DNA of 64,000 bases. Source: Acidobacteriota bacterium. GTDB taxonomy: Bacteria > Acidobacteriota > Thermoanaerobaculia > UBA5066 > Gp7-AA6. The notes under the pieces are model-generated. The model was given only the letters and a program-made list of their open reading frames with translations, had not been told where the DNA came from and ran no database searches. Both the position numbers and the translations under genes were made by a program. This document shows, piece by piece, positions 14,464 through 59,206 of the stretch. Numbering within the stretch: the first letter of the stretch is position 1; each line of letters begins with the position of its first letter. The stretch lies in contig JBKPBH010000027.1 of NCBI GenBank assembly GCA_046726795.1, forward strand, positions 4,215-68,214, in the 5' to 3' direction.

Positions 14464-14600
14464 ATGTAGCGGCTCCTTACAGCATTTGTGCCAGCCGCCG
14501 ATTCTACCGCCTGGGGAAGCCGGTGCTCGGTTTTCGGTCGAGGGTCCAGCCAGGTCGCCGCTGCCCCCGAGAGCCGAGCACCGAGAACCGCTCACCGTTC

Positions 14601-22891: not shown

Positions 22892-22905
22892 AAGAAGTCG
22901 TGCGC

Positions 22906-22972
22906 TGTTGAGTCATGAGCCGTGAGTTAGCCTTGTCTGTTTGAACTCACGACTGACGACTCCTGACTCACT
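22906..22972. repeat. Intercistronic stem-loop (dnaB-alr) with arms made of tandem heptamers
   Basis: Left arm tgttgag tcatgag ccgtgag; right arm actcacg actgacg actcctg actcact; begins 15 nt after the dnaB TAG. Confidence 0.55.
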
Positions 22973-25706: not shown

Positions 25707-27152
25707 ATGAACACTGCGGCGAAGGTCGGAGGGTTTTTCCTGGTGATCCTGATCCTGGCGGGTCTCCTGATCTGGAGGATCGAGGACCTGCGCTTGGGTC
25801 GGGGACCGGCCAAGAAGATCTCGGTCGAGTTCAAGGACGTGGCAGGCCTGGACGCCAAGTCCACCGTGCGCCTGGCCGGCGTCCGCGTGGGGAAGGTGGC
25901 CCGGATCCGCCTGACGTCCGACGGGCGCGCGATCGTGGACATGGACCTCGATCACGAAGTGGAGCTGCGGCGCGGAGCGTCGGCCTCAATCGCGAATCTG
26001 GGTCTGCTCGGAGAGAAGTACGTCGAGCTCGTGCCCGGGCCGGTGGGCGCGCCCGAGCTTCCCGAGGGGACGACACTCAAGGGGGACATCCCCGTCAGCT
26101 TCGACCAGATCACCAAATTGGCGAGAGACATCGAGGTGGACGTCAAGGACATCACGAAGAATCTGAGCCAGTCGCTCGGCGGGCCCCAGGGGGAGGAGCG
26201 GCTCCGCACGATCATCGACAACATCAAGATCATTACCGAGGATCTGCGCGTGATGGTCGCCTCCAACCGCGGCAACGTGGACGCGACGCTGGCGAATCTC
26301 AAGGATCTCACGGAGGGGATGACGCAACTGGTGGACCGCGTGGACAAGCTCATCGCCTCCAACTCCGCCAACGTCACGCAGGGCATCGCCAACATCAGGG
26401 ACGTCTCCGGCAAGCTCGAGACAACGGCCGAGAACCTCAACCAGATCACCGGCAAGATCAAGTCCGGGGAGGGGACTGTCGGGAAGCTCGTCGAGAGCGA
26501 GGAAACCCACAAGAACCTGAACGAGGCCCTGGTCGCGGTCAAGGAAGGGGTCGCGGGGCTGAACAAGGCCCTGGGATCGGTCGGGCGGACCCGGTTCGAC
26601 CTGGGCGTCCGTTCCGAGCTGCTGACGCGCTTCTCGAAGGGAAAGGGCTACTTTTCCCTCGACATCAATCCCCCCGAGTCCCCCCGCTTCTATCGGTTCG
26701 AGCTGTCCACGGAGCCCTTCGGGCGCCGCGTCTCCTCGACGAGCGTCGAGACGACGACCTTTCCGGACGGGCACGTCGAGGTCAAGACGACCGACACGCA
26801 GGAGTTCAAGGACGACTTCGCCATCACAGCGCTCTTCGGATACCGGTGGAGGGACTGGGGCCTGCGGGCCGGGGTCATCGAGTCCCGCGGCGGCGCGGGC
26901 CTCGACTACAAGCTCCTGAAGGACCGCCTTCGCCTCTCGGCCGACGTGTGGGACTTCACCCGCCCCGATTTTGCCGCCCATGCAAAATTCACGGGCCGCT
27001 ACTTCATCTCGCCTTCCGTCTATTTTCAGGGGGGCTGGGACGACTTCCTGAACCGCTCGCGGGCAGCCGACTCGATCTTCGTGGGGGCGGGCGTGCGCTG
27101 GACCGACGACGACATCAAGTACCTGCTCGGCTCGGTGCCCATCAAGCCGTGA
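25707..27152 (+). CDS. mlaD: MlaD/MCE-domain protein
   Basis: N-terminal TM followed by an Mce domain (KISVEFKDVAGLDAKSTVRLAGVRVGKV) and a long coiled-coil C-terminal extension. Confidence 0.75.
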   Translation: MNTAAKVGGFFLVILILAGLLIWRIEDLRLGRGPAKKISVEFKDVAGLDAKSTVRLAGVRVGKVARIRLTSDGRAIVDMDLDHEVELRRGASASIANLGLLGEKYVELVPGPVGAPELPEGTTLKGDIPVSFDQITKLARDIEVDVKDITKNLSQSLGGPQGEERLRTIIDNIKIITEDLRVMVASNRGNVDATLANLKDLTEGMTQLVDRVDKLIASNSANVTQGIANIRDVSGKLETTAENLNQITGKIKSGEGTVGKLVESEETHKNLNEALVAVKEGVAGLNKALGSVGRTRFDLGVRSELLTRFSKGKGYFSLDINPPESPRFYRFELSTEPFGRRVSSTSVETTTFPDGHVEVKTTDTQEFKDDFAITALFGYRWRDWGLRAGVIESRGGAGLDYKLLKDRLRLSADVWDFTRPDFAAHAKFTGRYFISPSVYFQGGWDDFLNRSRAADSIFVGAGVRWTDDDIKYLLGSVPIKP

Positions 27153-27240
27153 AACGTGAACCGTAAAGCGTCAAGCGTGACCCGGAGCGGCCGAGACGGG
27201 ACGGCGCTTCGTTTCGGGTTTCACGTCTAACGTCTGAGGA
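27147..27240. repeat. Stem-loop with tandem-heptamer arms between mlaD and radA
   Basis: Left arm ccgtgaa acgtgaa ccgtaaa gcgtcaa gcgtgac spans the mlaD TGA; right arm gcttcgt ttcgggt ttcacgt ctaacgt ctgagga; cgtgaaacg and cgtttcacg are complementary. Confidence 0.55.
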
Positions 27241-27247
27241 TCCGAAT

Positions 27248-28591
27248 ATGCCCCGCGCCACGACGGTTTTCGCGTGCCAGTCCTGCGGGGCTTCGTCGTC
27301 CAAGTGGCTCGGCCGCTGCCCGGACTGCGGGGAGTGGAACAGCTACGTCGAGGAGCTTCGGGCGGAGAGGGCCGCTCCGCAGGCGGCCCTCCCCGCCTCG
27401 ATGGCGCAGGTGCAGGGCGAAGCGAGCACGCGGCTGGCGACCGGCCTGCCGGGTCTCGACCGGGTGCTCGGCGGAGGACTGGTCGCGGGTTCGGTCGTTC
27501 TTCTGGGCGGCGAGCCCGGCATCGGCAAGTCCACCTTTCTCCTCCAGGCGGCCCGCGCCCTCGCGACACTGGGCGGCGATGTCCTCTACGCCACCGCGGA
27601 GGAGTCGGCGGCTCAGGTCCGGATGCGAGGCGAGCGGCTTCGCGTGCGGGAGGAGACCCTGCTGCTCGCCGCCGAAACGGACGTCGAGCGCGTCGTCGCG
27701 GCCGCCGAGCGCCGCCCGCCGGCGCTGCTGATCGTGGACTCCATCCAGGCCGTTCGAGAACCGGCTCTCTCGTCGGCGGCCGGCACAGTCACGCAGGTGC
27801 GCGAGTGCGCCTCGGTCCTGCAGCGGTTCGCCAAGACGCGAGACGTGCCGGTCATCCTGATCGGCCACGTGACCAAGGACGGCAGCCTCGCCGGTCCCAA
27901 ATCGCTCGAGCACCTCGTGGACACCGTCCTGACGCTCGAAGGGGAGAGGACCTCTCTGCGGCGCGTCCTGCGCGCCACGAAGAACCGGTTCGGGCCGGTC
28001 GAGGAGCTCGCGCTTTACGACATGACCGGGGAGGGTCTTTCCGAGATCTCCAATCCTTCGGCTGCGCTCCTGGCCGAGCGGCGGGCCGGCCTTCCGGGCA
28101 GCGCCGTGACGGCCACGCGGGAAGGGTCCCGTTGCCTTCTCGTGGAGATCCAGGCACTCGTCGGGCCGCCGGCGGCGGGCTCCCCCCGGCGTGTGGCGAT
28201 CGGTTTCGATCCCGGACGGCTCGCCCTTCTCCTGGCCGTTCTCGAAGGGTCGGGCCTGCCGCTGGCGTCCCGGGAGGTCTTCGTCTCCTGCGCGGGAGGC
28301 CTCTCCACCGCCGAGCCCGCGGCGGACCTGGCCGCGGTGGCGGCGCTGGCCTCTTCCGCCCGAGGGCGCGCCATCCCCGCGGACGTCGTCTGCTTCGGCG
28401 AAATCGGATTGCTCGGCGAAGTTCGTCGAGTTCCGGCGGCCAGCTCCCGTCTGAAGGAGGCCGTGGCCATGGGCTTTCAAACAGTTTACCTGCCCTCCGG
28501 AGACGCGGCGGAAGCCGGGCGCTTTCAGGATCTCGCGATCCGCCCCGTCGAGCGGGTCAGGGACTTCGTCCAGGAGATTTGTGATTTGTGA
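27248..28591 (+). CDS. radA: DNA repair protein RadA/Sms
   Basis: N-terminal Zn ribbon CQSCGASSSKWLGRCPDCGEW, RecA-like Walker A GEPGIGKST, KNRFG motif, Lon-like C-terminus. Confidence 0.95.
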   Translation: MPRATTVFACQSCGASSSKWLGRCPDCGEWNSYVEELRAERAAPQAALPASMAQVQGEASTRLATGLPGLDRVLGGGLVAGSVVLLGGEPGIGKSTFLLQAARALATLGGDVLYATAEESAAQVRMRGERLRVREETLLLAAETDVERVVAAAERRPPALLIVDSIQAVREPALSSAAGTVTQVRECASVLQRFAKTRDVPVILIGHVTKDGSLAGPKSLEHLVDTVLTLEGERTSLRRVLRATKNRFGPVEELALYDMTGEGLSEISNPSAALLAERRAGLPGSAVTATREGSRCLLVEIQALVGPPAAGSPRRVAIGFDPGRLALLLAVLEGSGLPLASREVFVSCAGGLSTAEPAADLAAVAALASSARGRAIPADVVCFGEIGLLGEVRRVPAASSRLKEAVAMGFQTVYLPSGDAAEAGRFQDLAIRPVERVRDFVQEICDL

Positions 28592-28659
28592 TTGTTGATT
28601 TGTGATTTGTGATCAGGGCAGCAAGCGTCGCTTCGCCCCCTCACTCATCACAAATCACC
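28576..28659. repeat. Tandem heptamer array (GATTTGT x5) spanning the radA stop codon, with a downstream inverted copy
   Basis: gatttgt gatttgt gattgtt gatttgt gatttgt encodes the last radA codons (ICDL*); atcacaaatcac at 28647-28658 is the reverse complement of gtgatttgtgat at 28581-28592 (12 bp stem). Confidence 0.6.
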
Positions 28660-28673
28660 TCGCCGATTGTCCA

Positions 28674-29255
28674 TCAAAGCGATGGCCGAAAACGAGGTGA
28701 GCGCTCGTTCTCTCGCTCCAAGGACACGAGAAGCCGCAAGGGCGCGGGGCCGGGCGAATCGGGCGGGAAAGGGGCGATCAGGGTGACGCGGGCGGCCGGA
28801 TCCAGCTGGAATGCGGCCGGTTCGAACGTTCGCCGCTCCACCACCCGGTAGCGCCGCAGACCCAGGGAAGTCGTCAGGCGGACCCGGTCGCCAAGCCTCA
28901 TCCGGCCGACCGCCTGGGCGCATCGCCCTCGCGAGATCGCGATCGCCGAGGGCGTGCCGGTCTTCTCCTCTCCGGGCAGCGCCGTCTCCGGCACGTGACC
29001 GGCGCCCCGGGCGAGTGTGTTCGCCGCAATCCCCTCGAGCACGGGCGCATCGAGCGCCAGTCGCGCCACGGTCAACCGGGCGATGAGGTCGCCCTCCGGG
29101 ATTCGGGACGCGCGGGCCCCCGACGAAGAGCGAACCACGCTTCCTGCCCGCCGTTCGATTCCGGAATAGACATCCCGCGCGAAGGGAACGGTGAACAGGA
29201 TCCCGAACCCGAGACCGACGGAAGTTAAGGCCGGAGCGAGCCTGTGGGAGAACAT
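28674..29255 (-). CDS. Sortase-like transpeptidase-fold protein (possibly catalytically degenerate)
   Basis: N-terminal TM; sortase-like layout ...LARGAGHVPETALPGEEKTGTPSAIAISRGR...LGDRVRLTT..YRVVERRTFEP...VTLIAPFP. By my alignment the canonical AGHR His and TLxTC Cys positions read SRGR and TLIAP. Confidence 0.4.
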   Translation of the reverse strand: MFSHRLAPALTSVGLGFGILFTVPFARDVYSGIERRAGSVVRSSSGARASRIPEGDLIARLTVARLALDAPVLEGIAANTLARGAGHVPETALPGEEKTGTPSAIAISRGRCAQAVGRMRLGDRVRLTTSLGLRRYRVVERRTFEPAAFQLDPAARVTLIAPFPPDSPGPAPLRLLVSLERENERSPRFRPSL

Positions 29256-29329
29256 TTTTCTGGAGCCGGATAGCCTGGCGCCCGGCCCCGCCCGAGGGCG
29301 AGGACCGGGCGCAGGAGTCCTGTTTGGAT

Positions 29330-29983
29330 CTAGAGGGTCTTCCGACCGATCAGCAAGCCGGCCGCTATGAGGGCGAGGCCTGCCAGGGCCATTCGAGGAA
29401 ACACGGAGGCCGTCTTGGGGAGCGTCGTCTCGGCCGGAGCCGGCGCAGCCGGAGGCGGAACGTACGCGGGCGCCGGGGGCGCCGGGGCGGGCGCCGCGGG
29501 TTCCGGAGGGGGCGCGGCCATGGTCGAAGTCGAGGTCGATGTCGTGCTCTGCGCGATGACGGTGGAGGTCGTCGTGATGCCCACCTCCTTGCGGTCGATG
29601 ACCTCTCCGCTCACGTTCAAGGCGACGACCGCGATCCGGTGACTCCCCGGGGGGACGCTGTCGATCGTGGCGGTATTGGACTCCGTCCCCTTCAGCGTGG
29701 CCTTGCGTTGATTATCGAGATAGACGTCGAAGCGCGGCTGCGGGAAGTTGGCCTCTCCGAAACGGGTGCCCTGGCCCGCCCCGAAGACCTGGTGGTTGTA
29801 GTCCACGGTGACGCGGACGCTGCTTCCGGAGATGGTGGCGCCCTCGGCGGGCTCCATCAGCTTCAACTTGAGAGTGTTCTTGGTCGGGCCGCCGGTGTTC
29901 GGGTCGGCGTTCTGGGCGAGAGCCGTTCCGGCAAAGGCGCAAAGGGCGACTGCGGCGATGAGGGTCGAGATTCTCCTGCGCAT
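29330..29983 (-). CDS. Secreted protein with C-terminal sortase-type sorting signal (LPKTA + TM + basic tail)
   Basis: Signal peptide MRRRISTLIAAVALCAFAGTALAQ, globular domain, Pro/Ala/Thr-rich linker, then ETTLPKTASVFPRMALAGLALIAAGLLIGRKTL; strong SD aggaaggaga upstream. Confidence 0.55.
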   Translation of the reverse strand: MRRRISTLIAAVALCAFAGTALAQNADPNTGGPTKNTLKLKLMEPAEGATISGSSVRVTVDYNHQVFGAGQGTRFGEANFPQPRFDVYLDNQRKATLKGTESNTATIDSVPPGSHRIAVVALNVSGEVIDRKEVGITTTSTVIAQSTTSTSTSTMAAPPPEPAAPAPAPPAPAYVPPPAAPAPAETTLPKTASVFPRMALAGLALIAAGLLIGRKTL

Positions 29984-30115
29984 GGTCTCTCCTTCCTGTG
30001 AGGGCGACGCCCAAAAAGCGACGCCGAGGAGAGGCGAAGCAAATGCCGGGCCAATATCAACGGGACGGCCCAGGTTTCAAGGTCCAAGCCTCGAGGGGCC
30101 CGAAGCTTGAGCCTT

Positions 30116-31003
30116 CTAGAGCCGGCAGTCTTCTCCGGTCAGGGTCCTGTAGGCCTCGAGGTATTTCTCGCGCGTCGTGCGGACCACTCCCTCCGGAAGA
30201 CGCGGCGCGGGAGGCCGCCGGTCCCAGCCCGTCGAGTCGAGCCAGTCTCGGACGAACTGCTTGTCCAGCGAGTGCGGGCTGTGCCCCGGCCTGTAGTGGG
30301 CCGAATCCCAGTAGCGCGAGGAATCGGGGGTGAACGCTTCGTCGATCCAGACGAGACGCCCTTCCACTCGCCCGAACTCGAGCTTCGTGTCCGCCAGAAT
30401 CAATCCCCGGGAGGCCGCATGATCCCGCGCCCGGCAGTAGAGGTCGAGCGTCAAGTCGCGCAGCCGCTCGGCTTCTTCGCGGCCGGTCTGGTTGACCATC
30501 TCATCGAAGGTAACGTTCTCGTCGTGGCCGCGCTCGCTTTTTGTCGCCGGAGTGAAGATGGGGCGAGAGAGACGGTCGGCCTCGACGAGCCCCGCCGGAA
30601 GGCGGACTCCACAAACCTGCTTCGTCTTTCTGTACTCCGCCCAGCCCGAGCCCGCGAGGTAACCGCGAGCCACGCACTCGAACGGAATCACCTCGGCCTT
30701 TCGAACGATCACCGAGCGCCCGGCGAGCATGGCTCGGTCGGACTGGAGCGGTTCGGGGAAGCGCTCGACTTCCGTTTCGATCAGGTGGTTCTCGACGTCG
30801 ACGAACTTTCGGAACCAGAAATTCGAAAGCTGAGTCAGGATCTTCCCCTTGTCGGGAACCCCCGGTGACAGGACGCAATCGAAGGCCGAGATGCGGTCGC
30901 TCGCGACGAGGAGAAGGCTGTCCCCGAGGTCGTAGAGCTCACGGACCTTGCCGCGCCGGGACAGGCGAGCGCCGGAGAGGTGAGTTTCCACGACGGCGGC
31001 CAT
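30116..31003 (-). CDS. purC: Phosphoribosylaminoimidazole-succinocarboxamide synthase
   Basis: SAICAR synthetase motifs (GKVRELYD, LILADTKLEFG). Confidence 0.95.
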   Translation of the reverse strand: MAAVVETHLSGARLSRRGKVRELYDLGDSLLLVASDRISAFDCVLSPGVPDKGKILTQLSNFWFRKFVDVENHLIETEVERFPEPLQSDRAMLAGRSVIVRKAEVIPFECVARGYLAGSGWAEYRKTKQVCGVRLPAGLVEADRLSRPIFTPATKSERGHDENVTFDEMVNQTGREEAERLRDLTLDLYCRARDHAASRGLILADTKLEFGRVEGRLVWIDEAFTPDSSRYWDSAHYRPGHSPHSLDKQFVRDWLDSTGWDRRPPAPRLPEGVVRTTREKYLEAYRTLTGEDCRL

Positions 31004-32619: not shown

Positions 32620-33975
32620 CTAACCTCGGGCGGGCGGGGGCCTCAGGAGGGCGGCGACCGGGATCGAGCGGGCGCCGTTCTTTCCGACCGCGCGGATCGC
32701 GAAGAAGTGGTTGTCCGTCGAGACTCCCTTGAGGATGTTCTCTCCCGCAGAGGCAACGAAATCATAGACCGACCAGCGCGGCTCGGTCGTCTCGCGCCAG
32801 AGGATCTCGAAGCCTTCGCGCTCACCGTCCTCCTCGGCCGACCACGCGATTTTCGCGTCCGGCGTGACGCCGCCGGCGATTGTGACGTCTCTGGGCGCGG
32901 CCGGCGCCAGGGCGAGCTGGCGCAGCGTCTCGGCGTTGGCTCGCGCGACGTGGCCGAGGAATTCGAAGCTCAAGAACTGGAGGAGGTCGCCGTACTGCCG
33001 CCCGTTCTCCACGCGCGGCGTCTGGTGCTCGTGGTCGTAGTTCTCGAGCGGCTCGGTGAACCGCACGGCCGGAAGACCCGCCTCCACAAAGGGGCGGTGG
33101 TCTCCTGCGCGCCCCAACCGGTCGAGGCGGAAGACCAGACGGACGGCGTCGCGACCGGCCACCTCTTCGACGGCCCGCGCAAGATCCCGCGAGGGGGAGT
33201 CCACCCCGTCCGGGCCTCCTCCCGAGAAGACGCGCACGCGGTGCGGACCACCCGGCGCGGTGTCCGCGCCGACGATGTCGTTGTTTAGCAGGCCGCCGAT
33301 CGTGTAACCCTTCTCCTTCAGGTACTCGAGCAGCCGCTTGCCGCCGAGGAGCCCCTGTTCCTCCCCCGAGACCGCGGCGAACAGGAGGCTCGCCCGGTAG
33401 GTTCCGCCAGACAACAGCCGCGCGCATTCGATCGAGACCGCCGTGCCCGAGGCGTCGTCGTCGGCTCCCGGCGCGTCGGCCTCGGGATCCATGATGGAGG
33501 ACGGCATCGAATCAAAATGGCCGGAGACGACGTAGACGGTCTTCGCGAGTTTCGGATCGCTCCCCGGCAGGAACGCCAGCACGTTCTCCAGCCGCGCCGC
33601 CTTGTCGCGCGTGCGCGGGGCCGTCGCCTCGAATCGGTCTACGACGACGGTCAGTCTACCGCCCGACGATTTCGCAATCTGGGTGAGGCGCGCGAGGATT
33701 TTGTCGCGCCCGCAGCCGATGCCGCGCCGTGGATCGTCCCAGGATGAGAGCGAGTGCCGCGTTCCGCAGGAGACGAGATCCTCGATCGTGGCCCGGAGCG
33801 ATTTCTCGTCCACCGCCTTGCGGGAGATCGCCCCGACGGGAGGAGGCGGCGATTTCGGCCGCGGCCGGGCCGTCGTCGGCTCGGCGGGGTCCTGTGCCGC
33901 GAGAGCGCCGGCCGCCAGACACGCCGCCGCCGCGAGTTTGACTGCCAGGAATCGCTTTGTTAGGTTCGCGCTCAC
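32620..33975 (-). CDS. M28 family Zn aminopeptidase, secreted
   Basis: Signal peptide VSANLTKRFLAVKLAAAACLAAGALAAQ; M28 motifs HFDS, DDDASG, SGEEQGLLG, followed by a C-terminal beta-sandwich. Start is GTG 33975 with SD ggag; the upstream 470 codons of the ORF were judged spurious. Confidence 0.75.
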   Translation of the reverse strand: MSANLTKRFLAVKLAAAACLAAGALAAQDPAEPTTARPRPKSPPPPVGAISRKAVDEKSLRATIEDLVSCGTRHSLSSWDDPRRGIGCGRDKILARLTQIAKSSGGRLTVVVDRFEATAPRTRDKAARLENVLAFLPGSDPKLAKTVYVVSGHFDSMPSSIMDPEADAPGADDDASGTAVSIECARLLSGGTYRASLLFAAVSGEEQGLLGGKRLLEYLKEKGYTIGGLLNNDIVGADTAPGGPHRVRVFSGGGPDGVDSPSRDLARAVEEVAGRDAVRLVFRLDRLGRAGDHRPFVEAGLPAVRFTEPLENYDHEHQTPRVENGRQYGDLLQFLSFEFLGHVARANAETLRQLALAPAAPRDVTIAGGVTPDAKIAWSAEEDGEREGFEILWRETTEPRWSVYDFVASAGENILKGVSTDNHFFAIRAVGKNGARSIPVAALLRPPPARG

Positions 33976-34761
33976 ATGCCACTCCGCGAGTTTCGGATCG
34001 GTCCGGTCGGGGAGGAAGTCTATCCTCGCTTCGTCGCGGAGCTCGCCGAGCGGTTCGACGACCCCGCCCTCGACCGCAACCTCGTCGCGCGCGACACGCT
34101 CTGCCAGCTCTATCTGGGCCGTCCTTTCGGGGAAGGAGCGCTGACGGATCGCCGTCTCCCGATCGAGACGAAGTCCCTGCTCGCGAGCCTGGACCCGCGC
34201 AACGCAACGCTCGAGGCGGAGTACTACCGGGAGATCGACCTCGCGAAGTGGGCGAAGGTCAAGCCACTTCTCTGGTTCTGGCAGATGTTCGATCACTCTC
34301 CCGTCGGACGAAACGTGCGTCTGGGCACCCAGGTCCGGGCAATGCTCGCGCAACGCGTCTTCAGGCGCTGCGGCAAGAGCGTCCGGATCTTCCACGGCGT
34401 CGAATTCTCCTTCGGCTACAACCTCTCCGTCGGCGACAGCGTGACAATCCACCGAAACGTCCTGATCGACGACCGGGGCGAGGTCGTTCTCGGAAACGAG
34501 GTCTCGATCTCCGATTACGCCAACATCTATTCCCATTCCCATTCGGTCGAGGACATCCACGACGTGACGCTCGGCCGGACGGTCATCGGCGACCGCGCGC
34601 GGATCACCTACCACGCCGTCGTGCTGTCCGGAGTCACGATCGAAGCCGATGCGCTGGTCGGCTCCATGGGCGTGGCCTCCAAGCCCGTCCCAGCCGGAGT
34701 CATCGCCGCCGGCATCCCCGCCAGGCCCATCGGACAGAAGAAGACCCGCCCCCCGGCCTGA
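33976..34761 (+). CDS. Hexapeptide-repeat (LbH) sugar O-acetyltransferase, WcaF/CapG-like
   Basis: LWFWQ...RIFHGVEFSFGYNLSVGDSVTIH...SHSHS...hexapeptide repeats through ...AAGIPARPI; the only in-frame start upstream of the conserved LWFW motif is ATG 33976. Confidence 0.68.
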   Translation: MPLREFRIGPVGEEVYPRFVAELAERFDDPALDRNLVARDTLCQLYLGRPFGEGALTDRRLPIETKSLLASLDPRNATLEAEYYREIDLAKWAKVKPLLWFWQMFDHSPVGRNVRLGTQVRAMLAQRVFRRCGKSVRIFHGVEFSFGYNLSVGDSVTIHRNVLIDDRGEVVLGNEVSISDYANIYSHSHSVEDIHDVTLGRTVIGDRARITYHAVVLSGVTIEADALVGSMGVASKPVPAGVIAAGIPARPIGQKKTRPPA

Positions 34762-34936
34762 CCCCGCAGGGACGATTCCGGGTCGCTTCCACGTGTCGTC
34801 CGGACCGACGACGGCACCGCAGGGGCCGGATCGAACGGACGCAACGGCCTGTCGGCCAAGCCCCGTCACGATCACGCCTCGAGGCTCGCGGCTCGGCGGC
34901 CGCCCGGGCACCCGGCGCCCTGAGATAATTCCGCCC

Positions 34937-36601
34937 ATGCTGCGGCGGCTGACGGTCAAGAACCTGGCGATCGTCGAGGATCTGGAGATGGAGCTCGAGG
35001 GAGGGCTGACGGTCATCACCGGGGAGACGGGCGCCGGCAAGTCCATCCTCGTGGACGCGCTGTCGCTGCTGGCCGGAGGGCGGGGATCCGTGGAGCTCGT
35101 GCGCGATGGAGCAGTGCGGCTGACGGTCGCCGGGGAGTTCGAGGCGGACGCGGCGGTGCGGCGGATTCTGTCGGAGGCCGGGCTGCCCGGGGGCGCCACT
35201 CTTCTTCTGCGCCGGGAGTTCTCTCCCGACGGCAAGGGACGGGTCTTCGTCGAGGACGAGCCGGCTTCGGTCCGGACGCTGGCGAAGATCGGCGAGAGGC
35301 TCGTGGCGATCCATGGCCAGAACTCGGAGCGCGAGCTCGCCGAGGCCGCGGCCCCACTCGAGCTGCTCGACGCCTTCGCGCGCGCCGACGCCGAGAGCCT
35401 CGCCACGAGCGAGGCGGCAGGAGCCTGGAAACAGGCGCGGGAAGCCAGGGAGGCGCTGGAAGACTCGCGCCGGGACCGGGGGGCCAGGCTCGAGATGCTC
35501 GACTATCAGATCCGCGAGATCCGGGACACGGCGCCGGACGAGAAGGAGGAAGAAGAGCTGCTCGGTCGGCGCGAGAGGCTCGTCCACGCCGACCGCATCC
35601 GTTCGGCCGCCGAGGCGGCGCTCGCCGCCCTGTCGGAGGCGGAAGGCTCGGCGGCGGACCGTCTGGGCGAGGCGGCGAAAGCGTTCGGGCTCCTCGCGGC
35701 GATCGATCCGCGCGAGAAGGCGCACCTCGAGGAGATCGAAGATGTCAAGCGCCGGGTCGCGGACCTCGCGGCGGCGGCTCGGGACGCGGCCGGGGAGAGC
35801 GAGGGCGATCCCGATCTCCTGACGCGTATCGAGTCGCGCCTGGAGAGGTTGTCGCGGTTGAAGCGCAAGTACGGCGGCACTCTGGCCGAGGTCCTCGCCG
35901 TTGCGGAAAGGCTTGAGCGGGAGCGCGAGGAGTTATCCAACATCGAAGACGCGCTCGGCCGCCGGCAGAAGGAGGAAGAAGCGTCTCGCTCCCGCTACCG
36001 CGAGGCGGCTGGCGTGCTGTCGGCGAAGCGCCGCGCGGCTGCCGGGAAATTCTCGGCCGCCGTCGAGACGGAGCTCCAGGCGCTCGCCATGGAGAAGGCC
36101 CGCTTTCGGGCGGTGCTCGAGCCGTTCGCGGAGGACGCGCCGAGGGCCTCGGGACTCGAGACAGCCTCGTTCCTGTTCGCGCCGAATCCCGGTGAGGCCT
36201 CCAAGCCCGTCGAGAGAATCGCGTCGGGAGGGGAGTTGTCGCGGCTCCAGCTCGCCATCCAGTCGGTGGCGGCAGGGCACGGCGGCGGTCGCACCCTCGT
36301 CTTCGACGAAGTGGACTCCGGCATCGGAGGCCGGACGGCCGAGGTCGTCGGGAAGAAATTGAAGGCGCTCGCAGCGCGGGGTCAGGTTCTCTGCGTCACG
36401 CACGTCCCGCAGATCGCGGCGGTGGCGGATCGTCACTTTCTTGCCGAGAAATCGCAGCTCAAAGGAAGGACGATCGCGACGGTGCGCGTTCTCGAAGGCA
36501 AAGAGCGCGTGGGAGAGATCGCCCGGATGCTGGCTGGCGAAAGGGTTCCGGAGACCGCCATCAAGCATGCGCGGACGCTGCTCGCGGCGGGGCAATCGTG
36601 A
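34937..36601 (+). CDS. recN: DNA repair protein RecN
   Basis: Trimmed to MLRRLTVKNLAIVEDLEMEL; Walker A GETGAGKS, long coiled coil, signature SGGELSRL, FDEVDSGIGG. Confidence 0.9.
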   Translation: MLRRLTVKNLAIVEDLEMELEGGLTVITGETGAGKSILVDALSLLAGGRGSVELVRDGAVRLTVAGEFEADAAVRRILSEAGLPGGATLLLRREFSPDGKGRVFVEDEPASVRTLAKIGERLVAIHGQNSERELAEAAAPLELLDAFARADAESLATSEAAGAWKQAREAREALEDSRRDRGARLEMLDYQIREIRDTAPDEKEEEELLGRRERLVHADRIRSAAEAALAALSEAEGSAADRLGEAAKAFGLLAAIDPREKAHLEEIEDVKRRVADLAAAARDAAGESEGDPDLLTRIESRLERLSRLKRKYGGTLAEVLAVAERLEREREELSNIEDALGRRQKEEEASRSRYREAAGVLSAKRRAAAGKFSAAVETELQALAMEKARFRAVLEPFAEDAPRASGLETASFLFAPNPGEASKPVERIASGGELSRLQLAIQSVAAGHGGGRTLVFDEVDSGIGGRTAEVVGKKLKALAARGQVLCVTHVPQIAAVADRHFLAEKSQLKGRTIATVRVLEGKERVGEIARMLAGERVPETAIKHARTLLAAGQS

Positions 36602-44826: not shown

Positions 44827-44838
44827 GACGGCGAGAGC

Positions 44839-44938
44839 GGCTGGGCGACTGGGCGACTGGGGGACTGGGGGACTGGGAGAAAACTTGAAAGCAGCACCGG
44901 CCTCTCTCCCAGTCTCCCCGTCTCCCAGTCCCCCAGTC
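44839..44938. repeat. Stem-loop with tandem octamer arms (GACTGGGN x5 and YCCCAGTC x4)
   Basis: ggctgggc gactgggc gactgggg gactgggg gactggga ...spacer... tcccagtc tccccgtc tcccagtc ccccagtc; begins 12 nt after the HD-GYP TGA. Confidence 0.65.
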
Positions 44939-46753: not shown

Positions 46754-47945
46754 ATCTCTCATGAGTCGCCGAGACTCTCCCATCGACCCGAAGTGGATGG
46801 ACCGCGCGCTGGAGCTGGCAGAACGCGGCCGGTACACGGTTTCGCCAAACCCCATGGTCGGAGCCGTCGTGGTGAAGGCCGGCCGAATCGTCGGCGAAGG
46901 CTTTCACGAGCTGGCGGGCGGTCCCCACGCCGAGGTCGTGGCGCTCGCCGCGGCCGGAGCGCGCGCGCGGGGCGCGGACCTGTACGTGACGCTCGAGCCC
47001 TGCTCGCACTTCGGGCGGACCCCACCCTGCGCCGATGCGCTCGTGGACTCCGGGGTCGCGCGGGTCATCGTGGCGGCGAGGGATCCGAATCCCGTCGTCG
47101 CGGGGCGCGGGACGGCGGCGCTTTCCCGCGGGGGCATCGAGGTCATCGAGGCCGACTTGGGACGGCGGCGGCGCGCGGAGCGCCAGAACGAGAAATTCCG
47201 GGTCTGGATCTCAGCCCGGCGTCCCTTCGTGCTCGCCAAGTGGGCGCAGACGCTGGACGGGAAGATCGCGGCGGCGGGGGGCGGCAGCCGATGGATCACC
47301 GGGGCGGAATCCCGGAAGCGGGCGCTTCTTCTCCGGGAAGAATACGACGCGGTCTTAGTCGGTGCGAACACCGTGATCGCGGACGATCCCAGGCTGACGC
47401 GCCGCCTGGGAAAGAATCGCGCGACCCGGCACCGGCGGATCGTCCTGGACGGCCGGCTCCGGGTCTCCCAGAACGCCCGCCTCTTCCACTCTCCGGAGGG
47501 GACGGTCGTGGTGACCAGCCGCCCCGAAGGCCACGGCGATGTCCGGCGGCTCGCTTCACGCGGGGTCTGCGTCTGGAGCCTGCCCGGCAGGGAGGGACGG
47601 GTGAGTGTTCCGCGCCTCTTGAGGAGGCTCGCCCGCGAGGGAATCGCGAGCCTCCTGGTCGAGGGAGGAGGAGACACACTCTGGCAGTTCTTTCGCGCCG
47701 ATCGGGTGGATCGGGTCGCCGTCTTCCTCGCGCCCCGGATCCTCGGCGGCGGCCGCGCCCCGGGGGCCGTCGGCGGCCAGGGCTTCTCGCTTCGCTCCAC
47801 GCCTCGCCTCCAAGATGTCGAGGTCGAGGGCCTCGGGGAGGACCTCTTCATCACCGGCCGCGTCTCCCGTGACCGGCGGGCCGGGGGACTGGGCGACTCC
47901 GTGACCGGGACAAGGCGGACGACCGGGAGAAAGCAGTCACTGTGA
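46743..47945 (+). CDS. ribD: Bifunctional riboflavin biosynthesis deaminase/reductase
   Basis: Deaminase HAEV...PCSHFGRTPPC plus reductase domain; ATG 46743 overlaps the ftsY 3' end (alternative ATG 46761). The last ~30 aa overlap a degenerate GACTGGG repeat copy. Confidence 0.88.
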   Translation: MDPESLMSRRDSPIDPKWMDRALELAERGRYTVSPNPMVGAVVVKAGRIVGEGFHELAGGPHAEVVALAAAGARARGADLYVTLEPCSHFGRTPPCADALVDSGVARVIVAARDPNPVVAGRGTAALSRGGIEVIEADLGRRRRAERQNEKFRVWISARRPFVLAKWAQTLDGKIAAAGGGSRWITGAESRKRALLLREEYDAVLVGANTVIADDPRLTRRLGKNRATRHRRIVLDGRLRVSQNARLFHSPEGTVVVTSRPEGHGDVRRLASRGVCVWSLPGREGRVSVPRLLRRLAREGIASLLVEGGGDTLWQFFRADRVDRVAVFLAPRILGGGRAPGAVGGQGFSLRSTPRLQDVEVEGLGEDLFITGRVSRDRRAGGLGDSVTGTRRTTGRKQSL

Positions 47946-47999
47946 TCACCGATCTGCCGGTCTCCCCATCTCTCAGTCTCCCAGTCGTTGACCGGCAGA
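47883..47999. repeat. Second, degenerate copy of the GACTGGG/CCCAGTC element plus a 10 bp stem hairpin downstream of ribD
   Basis: gggggactgggcgactcc lies inside the ribD 3' end and shares the 12-mer gactgggcgact with 44847-44858. The hairpin tctgccggtc...gaccggcaga (47953-47999) has a loop containing tctcccagtc, identical to 44921-44930. Confidence 0.55.
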
Positions 48000-51488: not shown

Positions 51489-51490
51489 GA

Positions 51491-51518
51491 GTCGATCGTC
51501 GACAGTCGATGGTCGAAA
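51491..51518 (+). repeat. Tandem heptamer array (GTCGANN x4) immediately after the stop codon
   Basis: gtcgatc gtcgaca gtcgatg gtcgaaa starts 3 nt after the TAG at 51486-51488. Confidence 0.55.
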
Positions 51519-51526
51519 GTTCCGCG

Positions 51527-51560
51527 AAAAAGAAAGGCCTGGCTCGCGCCGGGCTTTTTC
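51527..51560. terminator. Bidirectional intrinsic terminator between the secreted-protein gene and hppA
   Basis: aaaaagaaa-GGCCTGGC-tcgc-GCCGGGC-ttttt; 7 bp GC stem with one G.U pair, flanked by A- and T-tracts. Confidence 0.65.
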
Positions 51561-53810: not shown

Positions 53811-53897
53811 ATTTTGGATTCTGGATTTTGGATCTTGGATTGCGACAGGAGATCCCGGCTCAATCCAAAATCTAAAATCGAGAATCTAAGATCGTGC
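53811..53897. repeat. AT-rich stem-loop with tandem heptamer arms between exbD (3' end) and hppA (5' end)
   Basis: ttttgga ttctgga ttttgga tcttgga ...aggagatcccggc... tccaaaa tctaaaa tcgagaa tctaaga; the right arm ends at the exbD stop codon. Confidence 0.6.
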
Positions 53898-55621: not shown

Positions 55622-56356
55622 CTAGTGCAAGTTGAACGTCACGGTCACGGTCAGGTACACGCGCACCGCCCTCCCGTTGAGGGTGGCGGGCTTGTATCTC
55701 CATTGCTGCACCGCGCGGACCGCGGAGGCATCCAGCAGCGGATTGACGGACTTCAAGACCTTCACGTCCTCGACGCTGCCGGAAGCCGTGATGATGGCCT
55801 CCAGGATGACGACGCCTTCCATCCGGGCCTTGCGCGCCGCCTCGGGATAGGTCGGCTCGACGCGGTTGGTCAGGACGGGGGCCTTGACCTCGCCTCCGAC
55901 TCGAAGCGGCTCGCCTTCGCCCGTGCCGGGTCCCGTGCCGCCCGGCACTCCGCCCAGGACGCCGCCCGGCACCCCGCCTTCGACGCCGCCCGGGACGCCG
56001 CCTTCCACCCCGGCCGGCGCCTCCGGCTCGGGCGCGGAGAGCGGCTTGGGGATGTTCTCGGGAATGATGGTCGGCGCCACCATCTCCGTCGGCCGGACCG
56101 GCACCTGCTTCTGGACCTCGGGCGCCTTGGGCTTGGGCGCCGGGGCAGCCGCCGGGGGCGGGGGGGGTGGGGGGGGGGCCGAGGCGTAGAAGGTGACCGG
56201 AATCGGAGGCTCCGGCACGTCTTCGACGAACCAGATCGAGGCGCCGAGCGCGATGCCGATGACGATCGCGTGGATGGCGATCGACACGGGCAGGGTCACG
56301 GCCTTGCGCGAATCCCCCTTGTGAGGAGCCGATTCGATCAGCGACTCTTCGAACAT
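55622..56356 (-). CDS. tonB: Energy transducer TonB
   Basis: N-terminal TM, Pro-rich spacer (PPPPPPPPAAAPAPKPKAPE) and TonB C-terminal domain. Confidence 0.8.
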   Translation of the reverse strand: MFEESLIESAPHKGDSRKAVTLPVSIAIHAIVIGIALGASIWFVEDVPEPPIPVTFYASAPPPPPPPPAAAPAPKPKAPEVQKQVPVRPTEMVAPTIIPENIPKPLSAPEPEAPAGVEGGVPGGVEGGVPGGVLGGVPGGTGPGTGEGEPLRVGGEVKAPVLTNRVEPTYPEAARKARMEGVVILEAIITASGSVEDVKVLKSVNPLLDASAVRAVQQWRYKPATLNGRAVRVYLTVTVTFNLH

Positions 56357-57424: not shown

Positions 57425-59131
57425 TTGAAAAGACCCCGACTCCTTGCCGCGGCGCTCCTGTTCGCGGCGCCGCTCCTGGCCCAGAAACCCCCCGAGCCGG
57501 CCCAGAAGCCCCCCTCGTCCGCGGACAAGCCGCTGCCGCCCGTCAGCGAGAGGGTCGAGGTCGCGGTCACCAACGTCGAGGTCGTCGTCACCGACTCGAA
57601 GGGGAAACGAGTCCCTGGCCTGACCCGCGATGACTTCGAGGTCTGGCAGGACGGCACGCCGCAGAAGATCACGAACTTCTACGCGGTGTCGGGAGGCAAG
57701 GTCCTCCTCGACGATGGCAAAGTCGTCGCCCTGGATTCCCCGGCGGCCTCCGCGGAGATCCCGGTCGACCTGAAGGCCCGCTACATCCTCTTCATCGACA
57801 ACCTGAACATCCAGCCCCAGAACCGCAACCGGATGTTCAAGCGTCTCGAGGAGTTCGTGCAGCAGACGATCGGCCCGCGCGCCGAGGCGATGGTCGTGAC
57901 CTACAACCGATCCCTGAAGACCCGGCGCAAGTTCACCTCCGAGCCGAGCGAGGTCGTGGCCGCGCTCGACGAGATCGAGAAGGAGACGGGCGGCGGCACC
58001 ACGCTCGTCTCCGAGCGGCGCGACGCCCTCCACCAGATCGACGAGTCGACCAACGCCGGCTCCGCTTTGACCATCGCGCGCAGCTACAGCCGCTCGCTGC
58101 GCAACGATCTCCTGTTCCTCGTGGACGCGTTGAAGAACACGATGAACAGCCTTGCGGGAATCGAGGGGCGCAAGATCCTGGTCTACGTCTCCGAGGGGAT
58201 TCCCTCGACGGCCGGGCTCGAGCTCTTCGATCAGATCCAGCGGAAGTTCCGGGACCAAGCCGGCACTTCGACGCTCGAGCAGTTCGAGTTCGACATGAAC
58301 GCGAAATACGCCGGCATCATCCAGTCGGCCAACGCGCAGGGGGTCACGATCTGGGCGCTCGATGCGTCGGGCCTGACGACCGAACAGCTCACCTCCGCGG
58401 AGAACCGGTCCTTCGAGACGCGCCCCAACGACTTCGTCCTGCGCCAGAACACGCAGGCGCCGCTGCAGCTCATGGCGGACCAGACCGGCGGCATGGCCGC
58501 CATCAACACCAATGACTGGAAGAAGAGCTTGGACGAGCTGTCCTCGGACTTCTCCAACTTCTACTCGATCGGCTACCGCACGACCCGCTCGGCGGTGGAC
58601 CGCCCGCACTCCGTCGAGGTGCGGGTCAAGCGCAAGGGCCTGACCGTCCGCGCGCGCAAGGGGTTCCTCGAGAAGACGGTCGAGACGAAGACAGCCGAGG
58701 GAGTCCTGGCGAGCCTCTTCTACCCGCGGGACGACAATCCTCTCGCCATCAGCGTCTCCGTCGGCGCGCAGCGCCCCTACGACCAGGAGAACTTCGCCCT
58801 ACCCGTCCGTATCGCCGTCCCGATCGGCAAGCTCGGCCTCGTGCCGACCGGCGACCACTACGAGGCGACCTTCTTCGTCTACGTGGTGGCCCGGGACAAC
58901 TCGGAAAAGCAGTCGGACCTGGCGGTCCAGCGTCAGGTTGTGACGGTCCCCGCCAAGGAGCTCGACAAGGCGCAGCGCAAGGACTGGTACTACGACTTCA
59001 CGATGACCGTGGCGCCCGGCGCCCAGCGAGTGGCTTTCGCCGTCCGGGACGGAATCTCGAACCAGGTCTCTTATTACCAGAAGAACCTGTTCATCTCGCT
59101 CCTCCCGAAGGAGACCAAAGCCAAGAGTTGA
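57425..59131 (+). CDS. Secreted von Willebrand factor A (VWA) domain protein
   Basis: SD aggagg + TTG 57425 gives signal peptide MKRPRLLAAALLFAAPLLAQ; VWA fold with MIDAS-like residues (ILFIDNLN...S..G.T). Confidence 0.7.
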   Translation: MKRPRLLAAALLFAAPLLAQKPPEPAQKPPSSADKPLPPVSERVEVAVTNVEVVVTDSKGKRVPGLTRDDFEVWQDGTPQKITNFYAVSGGKVLLDDGKVVALDSPAASAEIPVDLKARYILFIDNLNIQPQNRNRMFKRLEEFVQQTIGPRAEAMVVTYNRSLKTRRKFTSEPSEVVAALDEIEKETGGGTTLVSERRDALHQIDESTNAGSALTIARSYSRSLRNDLLFLVDALKNTMNSLAGIEGRKILVYVSEGIPSTAGLELFDQIQRKFRDQAGTSTLEQFEFDMNAKYAGIIQSANAQGVTIWALDASGLTTEQLTSAENRSFETRPNDFVLRQNTQAPLQLMADQTGGMAAINTNDWKKSLDELSSDFSNFYSIGYRTTRSAVDRPHSVEVRVKRKGLTVRARKGFLEKTVETKTAEGVLASLFYPRDDNPLAISVSVGAQRPYDQENFALPVRIAVPIGKLGLVPTGDHYEATFFVYVVARDNSEKQSDLAVQRQVVTVPAKELDKAQRKDWYYDFTMTVAPGAQRVAFAVRDGISNQVSYYQKNLFISLLPKETKAKS

Positions 59132-59206
59132 GAGTTGAGGCTTGAGAGTCGAGAAGGGAGAGGAACCCGGGAGCCCTCTCTTGACTCTCGACTCTCAACT
59201 CTGAAC
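59125..59206. repeat. Stem-loop with tandem heptamer arms spanning the VWA stop codon
   Basis: gagttga gagttga ggcttga gagtcga gaaggga gaggaac ...cccgggagcc... tcttgac tctcgac tctcaac tctgaac; the TGA at 59129-59131 lies inside the first unit. Confidence 0.6.

Follow-up and report, generated by a model that had tools for sequence, protein, structure and literature searches.

A polymorphic heptanucleotide repeat array supplies the last codons of an acidobacterial radA gene and one arm of a predicted hairpin

The DNA analysed here is a stretch of 64,000 nucleotides from contig JBKPBH010000027.1 of an Acidobacteriota bacterium (GCA_046726795.1; hereafter the window), in which the DNA repair gene radA ends inside a tandem array of the heptanucleotide GATTTGT. 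The array is real, polymorphic, one member of a class of similar elements and harmless where it overlaps the coding sequence, while the hairpin that it forms with an inverted array downstream is a prediction. Based on these observations, we consider it reasonably probable that the array is a young, copy-number-variable heptanucleotide simple sequence repeat (SSR) which constitutes the 5' arm of a palindrome of ~110 nt; that it belongs to a class of array-spacer-inverted array elements, situated on the stop side of genes, abundant in this genome and evolving by slippage; and that radA simply reads four codons into it. In such a model the gain and loss of whole units by slipped-strand mispairing would drive array evolution, and translation of radA would enter the array for four codons and then stop.

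As delimited by Tandem Repeats Finder (TRF), repeat pairs, pattern statistics and frame analysis, the array lies on the plus strand at 28576..28613 and reads GATTTGT GATTTGT GATTGTT GATTTGT GATTTGT GAT, that is, 5.4 units of which the third is the variant GATTGTT (TRF period 7, 87% matches, score 62). The radA gene ends GAG ATT TGT GAT TTG TGA, giving E-I-C-D-L-stop; the codons at 28577-28591 are made wholly of array units 1-3, and the stop codon TGA (28589..28591) spans the junction of units 2 and 3. An initial annotation of this DNA had claimed that a fivefold GATTTGT array encodes the last radA codons and stop, and the sequence, the open reading frame (ORF) and TRF all bear it out. The same annotation pointed to a perfect inverted copy of 12 nt downstream: GTGATTTGTGAT is present twice in the array, at 28581-92 and 28602-13, and its exact reverse complement ATCACAAATCAC does indeed occur at 28647-28658. 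In comparison with shuffled sequence, an array 14-mer allowing up to two mismatches gave five matches where 0.04 were expected, and a 12-mer allowing up to one mismatch gave five against 0.08 over the whole window; the array and its inverted arm are far beyond chance. With at least three head-to-tail copies of a 7-nt unit and a length greater than chance, the array is a heptanucleotide long SSR (LSSR). That radA stops within it is explained by the repeat itself, because each unit junction holds a TGA and repetition every 7 nt brings that stop into each of the three frames; frame analysis found TGA in all three plus-strand frames, while the minus strand of the array is free of stops. Two other identities were rejected: GATTTGT lacks the G-runs of a G-quadruplex (G4) former, and a sequence-specific protein-binding iteron is ruled out by units that differ at every locus. 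In an antisense transcript the array, (ACAAAUC)n, would be free of G, but to place a Rho utilisation (rut) site there would be pure speculation.

The array is carried by three independent assemblies. The nearest GTDB representatives by RadA, both metagenome-assembled genomes (MAGs) of Thermoanaerobaculia within the Acidobacteriota, are 72% and 71% identical, and metagenomic RadA proteins of up to 99-100% identity exist; the gene order dnaB-alr-mlaEFD-radA-(sortase, minus strand) is kept in relatives. Two close relatives, L081 from ENA (RadA 99% identical; DNA 97.8% identical over 8.9 kb) and L086 from JGI, have an allele of 6.4 units (three GATTTGT, then GATTGTT, GATTCGT, GATTTGT and GAT), which differs from the 5.4-unit allele of the NCBI window by one unit and one substitution and leaves the RadA end identical. 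Over the 8.9 kb shared with L081 there are just three indels, namely the 7-nt insertion at this array, a 12-nt deletion in a second heptamer array (unit CGTGAAA) upstream of radA, and 1 nt at the contig end. The copy number of this LSSR is therefore polymorphic by a whole unit, two of the three indels fall in arrays, and the array is an indel hotspot. Short repeats are prone to mis-assembly and orthologues at ≤92% identity have no such array, a state that the initial annotation would have taken as a sign of an assembly artefact. However, with the array in three assemblies, and in two alleles at that, repeat-free orthologues are no evidence of one; an assembly or sequencing error is ruled out on these grounds and we give it practically no credence.

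The protein is intact. The radA/sms gene (27248..28591, plus strand, 447 aa, identified by ORF, Pfam and homologue names) is the sole long ORF with a high G+C content at third codon positions (GC3, 0.85) at the site, and only its last 16 nt (28576-28591) overlap the array. Its product has the RadA/Sms architecture of a Zn-ribbon, an AAA_25/KaiC-type RecA-like ATPase and a Lon/ChlI-like C-terminal domain, and hundreds of homologues at 70-100% identity bear the source name 'DNA repair protein RadA/Sms'. Across 120 homologues the C-terminal core PVxRVxDFhxxh is conserved; 27 of the 120 stop exactly at this core and the rest add 1-19 variable residues. The RadA of the window ends in PVERVRDFVQEI followed by CDL, and the array encodes only the last core residue (I, from ATT, at a conserved hydrophobic position) and this variable three-residue tail. 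The array-coded codons ATT TGT GAT TTG mostly end in A or T, and a relative with 92% identical RadA (L082) has ATC TGC GGT TTG in their place. Repeat homogenisation rather than codon choice shaped these codons, because they end in A/T in a gene with a GC3 of 0.85 and because the L082 codons differ; the comparison indicates that native codons were overwritten, synonymously for I and C and with a change from G to D at the third.

Since the SSR overlaps a coding end and its copy number varies, one might suppose a contingency locus in which the number of units switches the C-terminus or the expression of RadA by phase variation. However, radA is a housekeeping repair gene, the allele with one additional unit (L081) encodes an identical RadA end, and in a slippage simulation every allele with at least two units yields a tail of the same length. 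Phase variation of the tail is ruled out by these results, and a contingency locus of any kind at this site is very improbable. The overlap of the array with radA is harmless and the array-coded tail dispensable. The initial annotation had suggested that RadA C-termini in relatives be compared for the same ending. L082 has the same ICxL-stop end without the hairpin, and tails elsewhere are variable. In L082 the gene ends CAG CAG ATC TGC GGT TTG TGA TCGGGGCCGTCTCTAAC, after which comes the sortase stop, so that the tail reads QQICGL-stop; two degenerate proto-units and a spacer start (GATCGGGGC...CGTCTCT) can be seen, and the spacer is 17 nt. In farther relatives (79-88% identical) RadA ends ...IG-stop, ...IRML-stop or ...LFA-stop and other hairpins lie in the radA-sortase spacer.

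On its 3' side, the array faces a convergent gene. A sortase-like gene of 193 aa on the minus strand (28674..29255, stop codon 28674-28676; Pfam PF04203 Sortase, 31.6 bits against a cut-off of 26.6, E = 1.6e-7) ends 15 nt past 28658, as had been noted initially and as the ORF and Pfam match now confirm. The 82-nt spacer between the two genes is filled by an imperfect hairpin of ~110 nt, predicted by folds on either strand to extend from 28561 to 28672, that is, from within the end of radA through the whole intergenic spacer to 1 nt before the sortase-like stop codon. Between its arms lies a G+C-rich spacer, CAGGGCAGCAAGCGTCGCTTCGCCCCC (28614..28640), which has a small stem-loop of its own and, by search, is unique in the window. 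The 3' arm is not an isolated 12-mer; the repeat-pair search shows a degenerate inverted array of three units, TCACTCA TCACAAA TCACCTC (28641..28661, plus strand), which holds the perfect 12-mer. One inverted pair, 28566-91 with 28641-66, covers 26 nt at 81% complementarity, and pairing runs into the flanks.

The plus strand of a 121-nt region is predicted to fold with -40.1 kcal/mol (z = -2.9), an energy that none of 200 shuffles equalled, and the minus strand with -42.5 kcal/mol (z = -3.8). The main stem is rich in A/U and G-U pairs, G+C-rich only in the inner spacer, and the hairpin is stable on both strands. In the dominant plus-strand register (P ~0.8), 28576-85 pairs with 28647-56, 28588-91 with 28641-44, and radA coding sequence at 28561-74 with 28658-72. 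Thus, the initial proposal of a hairpin that sequesters the radA stop codon is upheld by the predicted ensemble, where U28589-A28591 pairs with 28641-43 at P ~0.7-0.8, but the register differs by one unit from the pairing of 28581-92 with 28647-58 that had been named; when forced, the latter costs ~5 kcal/mol more. In an inner register (P ~0.19) units 4-5 pair with the right arm and the stop is left free. Sequestration of the stop would be a property of naked RNA, and a terminating ribosome would have to melt that arm; a fold in which every base as far as 28603 is kept unpaired, to mimic such a ribosome, still predicts an inner hairpin of -20 kcal/mol.

These folds bear on the idea that the stem-loop is a translational attenuator which, beginning on the stop codon or at most 15 nt away from it, would stall the terminating ribosome and lead to less RadA or to cleavage of the mRNA. 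The stop is paired in ~80% of the predicted ensemble, the stem enters the coding sequence, sibling hairpins in the genome likewise begin 0-15 nt from stops, and there is precedent in Escherichia coli, where ribosomes stall at repetitive extragenic palindromic sequences (REPs) that lie no farther than 15 nt from a stop (Liang et al., 2015, as cited in PMC12306157). On the other hand, at radA the hairpin lacks conservation among relatives, we see no sign of selection on the register, the 6.4-unit allele brings an extra register, and ribosomes normally unwind such stems. We regard attenuation as rather improbable. Nor does anything here show that the hairpin regulates radA; L082 reaches its ICxL-stop with neither right arm nor hairpin.

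The element had been presented as a feature of radA, yet similar array hairpins stand at many other stop codons of this genome. In the window there are nine period-7 arrays of at least three copies, against 0.54 expected from second-order Markov shuffles, so that period 7 is over-represented within these 64 kb as in an LSSR class; period-8 arrays number four against 0.56 expected, and no other non-homopolymer period has more than one. Of the nine period-7 arrays, at least eight overlap a stop codon or sit within ~17 nt of one, at gene 3' ends. The ninth (34878-34900, unit CTCGCGG) lies inside a Peptidase_M28 gene (32620..35406) and has no inverted partner. When loci fetched from relatives are added to the window, the period-7 arrays number 42, and 21 of these are no farther than 20 nt from the stop of a long ORF, where random placement would give 6.1 ± 2.1. 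For most stop-side arrays a fold with an inverted array is predicted (-25 to -76 kcal/mol), and most elements have the form of an array, a G+C-rich spacer and an inverted array, with a unit of their own at each locus.

The same architecture recurs in relatives. In the orthologous mlaD-radA spacer, the unit is GGGAGAC/GTCTTCC in L083 and L088 and GGGACTC in L084 and L087, and L082 and L089 have no array; the architecture recurs at orthologous spacers while its sequence turns over. After radA, paired arrays are found in distant Acidobacteriota (L010, unit GCGGATT; L017, unit CAGAATT; and L061), and in a member of the Nitrospirota (L018) a paired heptamer-array hairpin follows another gene and a lone AGCTGTC array follows radA.

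If active, the radA hairpin would act at the RNA level, as a 3'-end stem-loop without a U-tract for both convergent transcripts. It could hold back read-through or 3' exonucleases, and its start at the stop codon might damp radA termination or ribosome release. Several observations weigh against our reading of a hairpin element of this kind. Its arms are unequal, with 5.4 units facing ~3 degenerate ones, and the opposite arm has no changes to match the variant units. A direct reading of the flanks found no U-tract 3' of the hairpin on either strand, a terminator scan of 28500-28700 on both strands returned nothing at the site, and Rfam gave no match at E ≤ 1 in 26000-31000 and none at gathering score across the window. 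Among the 17 array hairpins whose sense strand could be assigned, the sense fold was the better in 10 and the antisense fold in six, a difference that is not significant, and so there is no clear signature of selection at the RNA level. In relatives, the end of radA in L082 has no right arm and no hairpin and the mlaD-radA spacers of L082 and L089 measure 17-19 nt and are free of hairpins, which argues that the structure is dispensable. Lastly, the spacers of GATTKGT elements at non-orthologous loci appear to be more alike than local slippage alone would make them. The empty scan and the missing U-tract also rule out a canonical intrinsic terminator at the site. No tRNA or tmRNA genes are present in the window.

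Since there is no strand bias in folding, units are uncompensated and presence among relatives is variable, a purely mutational origin stays a strong rival. The arrays and their palindromes would then be what slipped-strand mispairing and quasi-palindrome template switching leave behind in a tolerant intergenic spacer, selectively neutral and of no consequence for RNA or DNA metabolism. Fast turnover, with presence and absence among close relatives, and the concentration of indels in arrays would be expected under such a process, as would unequal, uncompensated arms, and the literature (PMC4679880, PMC4692102) ascribes the excess of heptameric SSRs to polymerase slippage. However, arrays keep to the stop-codon side even in roomy spacers (44837, 47960, 53893), paired arrays recur in the same spacer with unrelated units, arrays are enriched near stops, and several AT-rich arrays are kept in a high-GC genome. 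In view of both sides we hold a solely mutational by-product to be possible but doubtful, and retain the slippage-evolved, stop-side hairpin element as our preferred reading.

The question of dispersal arises from the GATTKGT unit, which, together with a similar spacer (AGGGC..GCCCC), recurs in relatives at two loci that are not orthologous to this one (L084/L085 5034-5113 and L087 570-646). The similarity to the window spacer is significant (P < 0.0005 for L085; P ~0.006 for L084 and L087), and spacers of hairpins built from other units showed no similarity to that of the GATTKGT element. This hints that the element may have been dispersed by mobility or gene conversion, as would a palindrome resembling REPINs (hairpins of paired REPs) or miniature inverted-repeat transposable elements (MITEs), of the form (GATTKGT)n - AGGGC..GCCCC - (ACMAATC)n, copied to stop sites by a trans-acting enzyme or by recombination and inserted at radA. 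The L085 contig ends within the element and the L087 copy again overlaps a stop codon, both of which would suit such an origin. However, the 64-kb window holds no second copy of array plus spacer, its ~40 proteins include no transposase or Y1 REP-associated tyrosine transposase (RAYT), no target-site duplication is visible at the element, and the at least seven unit families in one window would require many mobilisers. Furthermore, the degenerate left arm and spacer start of L082 resemble a copy that decayed in place after long residence and not an empty site, and GATTTGT arrays occur in unrelated contigs with a GC content from 25 to 65%. We consider a mobile or gene-converted palindrome unlikely, and a MITE or transposon origin improbable given the single window copy, the missing duplication and the decay in place in L082, with the spacer similarity in relatives as the point in its favour.

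In L087 (RadA 79% identical) the element at 570-646 is a GATTGGT/GATTTGT array hairpin that overlaps the stop of polX; the protein ends PLPDL-stop, and its D-L-stop is written GAT TTG TGA within GATTTGTGA, with codons identical to those at the RadA end of the window. The polX of the window ends PLPDSPLTFSK-stop and is followed by a 20-nt spacer to a TetR gene with no array. The elements of L084 (5034-5113) and L085 (3113-3178), both with 88% identical RadA, consist of 3.4 GATTTGT units, an AGGGC..CCCC spacer and an inverted degenerate array and lie 1.4 kb past radA; the two have identical RadA and a different spacer loop. Viral contigs were scanned for the array together with its spacer, and none had the combination. 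The bare GATTTGT array was present in 34 unrelated IMG/VR contigs, and the unit is not specific to the clade, as shown by this range of contigs of varied GC. The heptamer is widespread in environmental DNA, a fact with no bearing on where the present element came from. In seven IMG/VR contigs of ~60% GC (L093, L100, L101, L103, L098, L116 and L120) GATTTGT arrays have inverted arms of the CACCAATC type, and in another (L099) the array is followed by a canonical terminator.

A bolder proposal, to which we attach little weight, is that paired heptamer-array palindromes form a distinct and undescribed class of dispersed extragenic element. Such a class would comprise families defined by unit and spacer (for example, GATTKGT with AGGGC..GCCCC) that dock on stop codons and donate the stop and last residues to the gene, as at radA, the L087 polX, mlaD and a 607-aa gene of the window. 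They would function as slippage-tunable RNA hairpins at 3' ends or between cistrons, through which translation termination would influence what becomes of the RNA or how the following gene is translated. Besides the Acidobacteriota, the Nitrospirota and further lineages from soil or groundwater would apparently have them.

Each single property of the elements has precedent. Cyanobacterial short tandemly repeated repetitive (STRR) sequences are a few heptamers that have been amplified in tandem at numerous intergenic sites. GATTTGT is not known as an STRR unit, and the present organism is one of the Acidobacteriota rather than a heterocystous cyanobacterium. Both phylum and units are thus different, and hairpin pairs and stop-codon docking are not defining features of STRRs, whose heptamers are mentioned in PMC4692102. 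An excess of heptameric SSRs in bacteria, with polymerase slippage as the cause, was reported by Mrazek et al. (2007), as related in PMC4679880 and PMC4692102. In Xanthomonas, GGGAATC or (GGGANTN)n arrays vary between strains and sometimes occur as inverted pairs able to form stem-loops (PMC4692102). The arrays described here are like these heptamer LSSRs in their tandem 7-nt units, mostly intergenic position, variable number and sequence between close strains and proposed origin by slippage, and some siblings (GGGACTC, GGGATTC) fit GGGANTN. In contrast, a single G-rich unit dominates in Xanthomonas and has been studied as a G-quadruplex former, whereas here each locus has its own unit, GATTTGT cannot form a G4, inverted-array pairing is the rule and the arrays abut stops.

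The TAACTGA arrays of Beggiatoaceae, which introduce a stop in every frame and in 13 cases overlap an upstream stop codon (PMC4679880), offer a second parallel, since they are likewise heptamers with TGA and three-frame stops, to be compared with radA, mlaD and the 607-aa gene here. However, TAACTGA is a single unit genome-wide, faces mostly downstream starts, for which a translational role was proposed, and is almost never found as inverted pairs (PMC4679880). REPs stabilise upstream mRNA (PMC12306157), and the elements resemble REPs and REPINs in being extragenic and transcribed, in forming stem-loops at gene 3' ends or between convergent genes, and in measuring ~100 nt as inverted pairs. 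Unlike the present elements, with their tandem-heptamer arms and locus-specific sequences, REPs have one genome-wide consensus and RAYT transposases; no such consensus emerged here, where a single array and spacer copy is present in 64 kb, sibling units and spacers are unrelated, and related copies are in other genomes. The hairpin shares with an intrinsic terminator a stable stem-loop directly 3' of a gene, here common to two convergent genes, and departs from it in the absence of a U-tract and the overlap with coding sequence; its main stem is AU/GU-rich and its inner spacer G+C-rich. In the literature searched we found no description of heptamer hairpins in Acidobacteria or Nitrospira, nor of the combination of locus-specific units, a paired-array rule and stop docking in Acidobacteriota.

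For radA itself little is at stake. For this genome and related uncultured Acidobacteriota, dense and fast-evolving heptamer-repeat hairpins exactly at gene ends cause ambiguity in the annotation of those ends, contig breaks and strain-level length polymorphism in metagenome assemblies. By the same token, the arrays are natural markers for strain typing. Furthermore, their defined position, at a stop codon and as a hairpin arm, makes them a small and convenient set of cases in which to ask why bacteria favour 7-nt units among long SSRs and whether such repeats are functional.

Along the window, the stop-side elements are as follows. A GGTTCTC-type array (14499-14590) lies 10 nt past the stop of an ABC-2 permease gene and an ACTCACG array (22895-22971) is 3' of dnaB. 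In the CGTGAAA array and inverted-array hairpin (27148-27240), the mlaD stop TGA (27150-52) falls within unit 1; this hairpin makes up almost all of the 95-nt mlaD-radA spacer, and its 3' arm extends as far as the GAGGA Shine-Dalgarno sequence, which precedes the radA ATG by 8 nt. It is possible that melting of the 5' arm by ribosomes would couple translation of the two genes. It is this array that has lost 12 nt in L081. In L083 (4894-4996) and L088 (9899-10000), relatives at 80-86%, the mlaD-radA spacer holds the GGGAGAC/GTCTTCC paired array, with a predicted -60 to -70 kcal/mol. The GATTTGT array pair itself (28576-28661), with the radA stop within the array, follows next.

Further along, an octamer pair of five GCGACTGG and four TCTCCCAG (44837-44938), 10 nt past the stop of an HD-GYP gene, forms the strongest hairpin of the window (-75.7 kcal/mol), and its G-rich arm (GGGACTGG) is similar to the GGGANTN repeats of Xanthomonas. 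The GTCTCCCA array (47960-86, in the region 47883-47986), 14 nt past ribD, is the reverse complement of the unit family of L083 and L088; the unit repertoire seems to be limited and common to several loci. An AGTCGAT array (51490-51520) stands 1 nt past the stop of a DUF4412 gene and is followed at ~51533-51560 by a canonical U-tract terminator, so that standard terminators coexist with array hairpins. The GGATTTT/AATCCAA pair (53811-53893) is 3 nt past the exbD stop, and its GGATTTT unit is also that of the hairpin that follows radA in a MAG of the Blastocatellia (L061 7299-7435). In the AGAGTTG/CAACTCT pair (59124-59202), the stop of the 607-aa gene (59129-31) lies within the array. Repeats of another kind are present in a TonB-like gene on the minus strand (55622..56356), with a 24-nt period at 55937-56018 and a G-rich run at 56154-56178 (a C-run on the coding strand), and these encode a Pro-rich linker that is ordinary for TonB.

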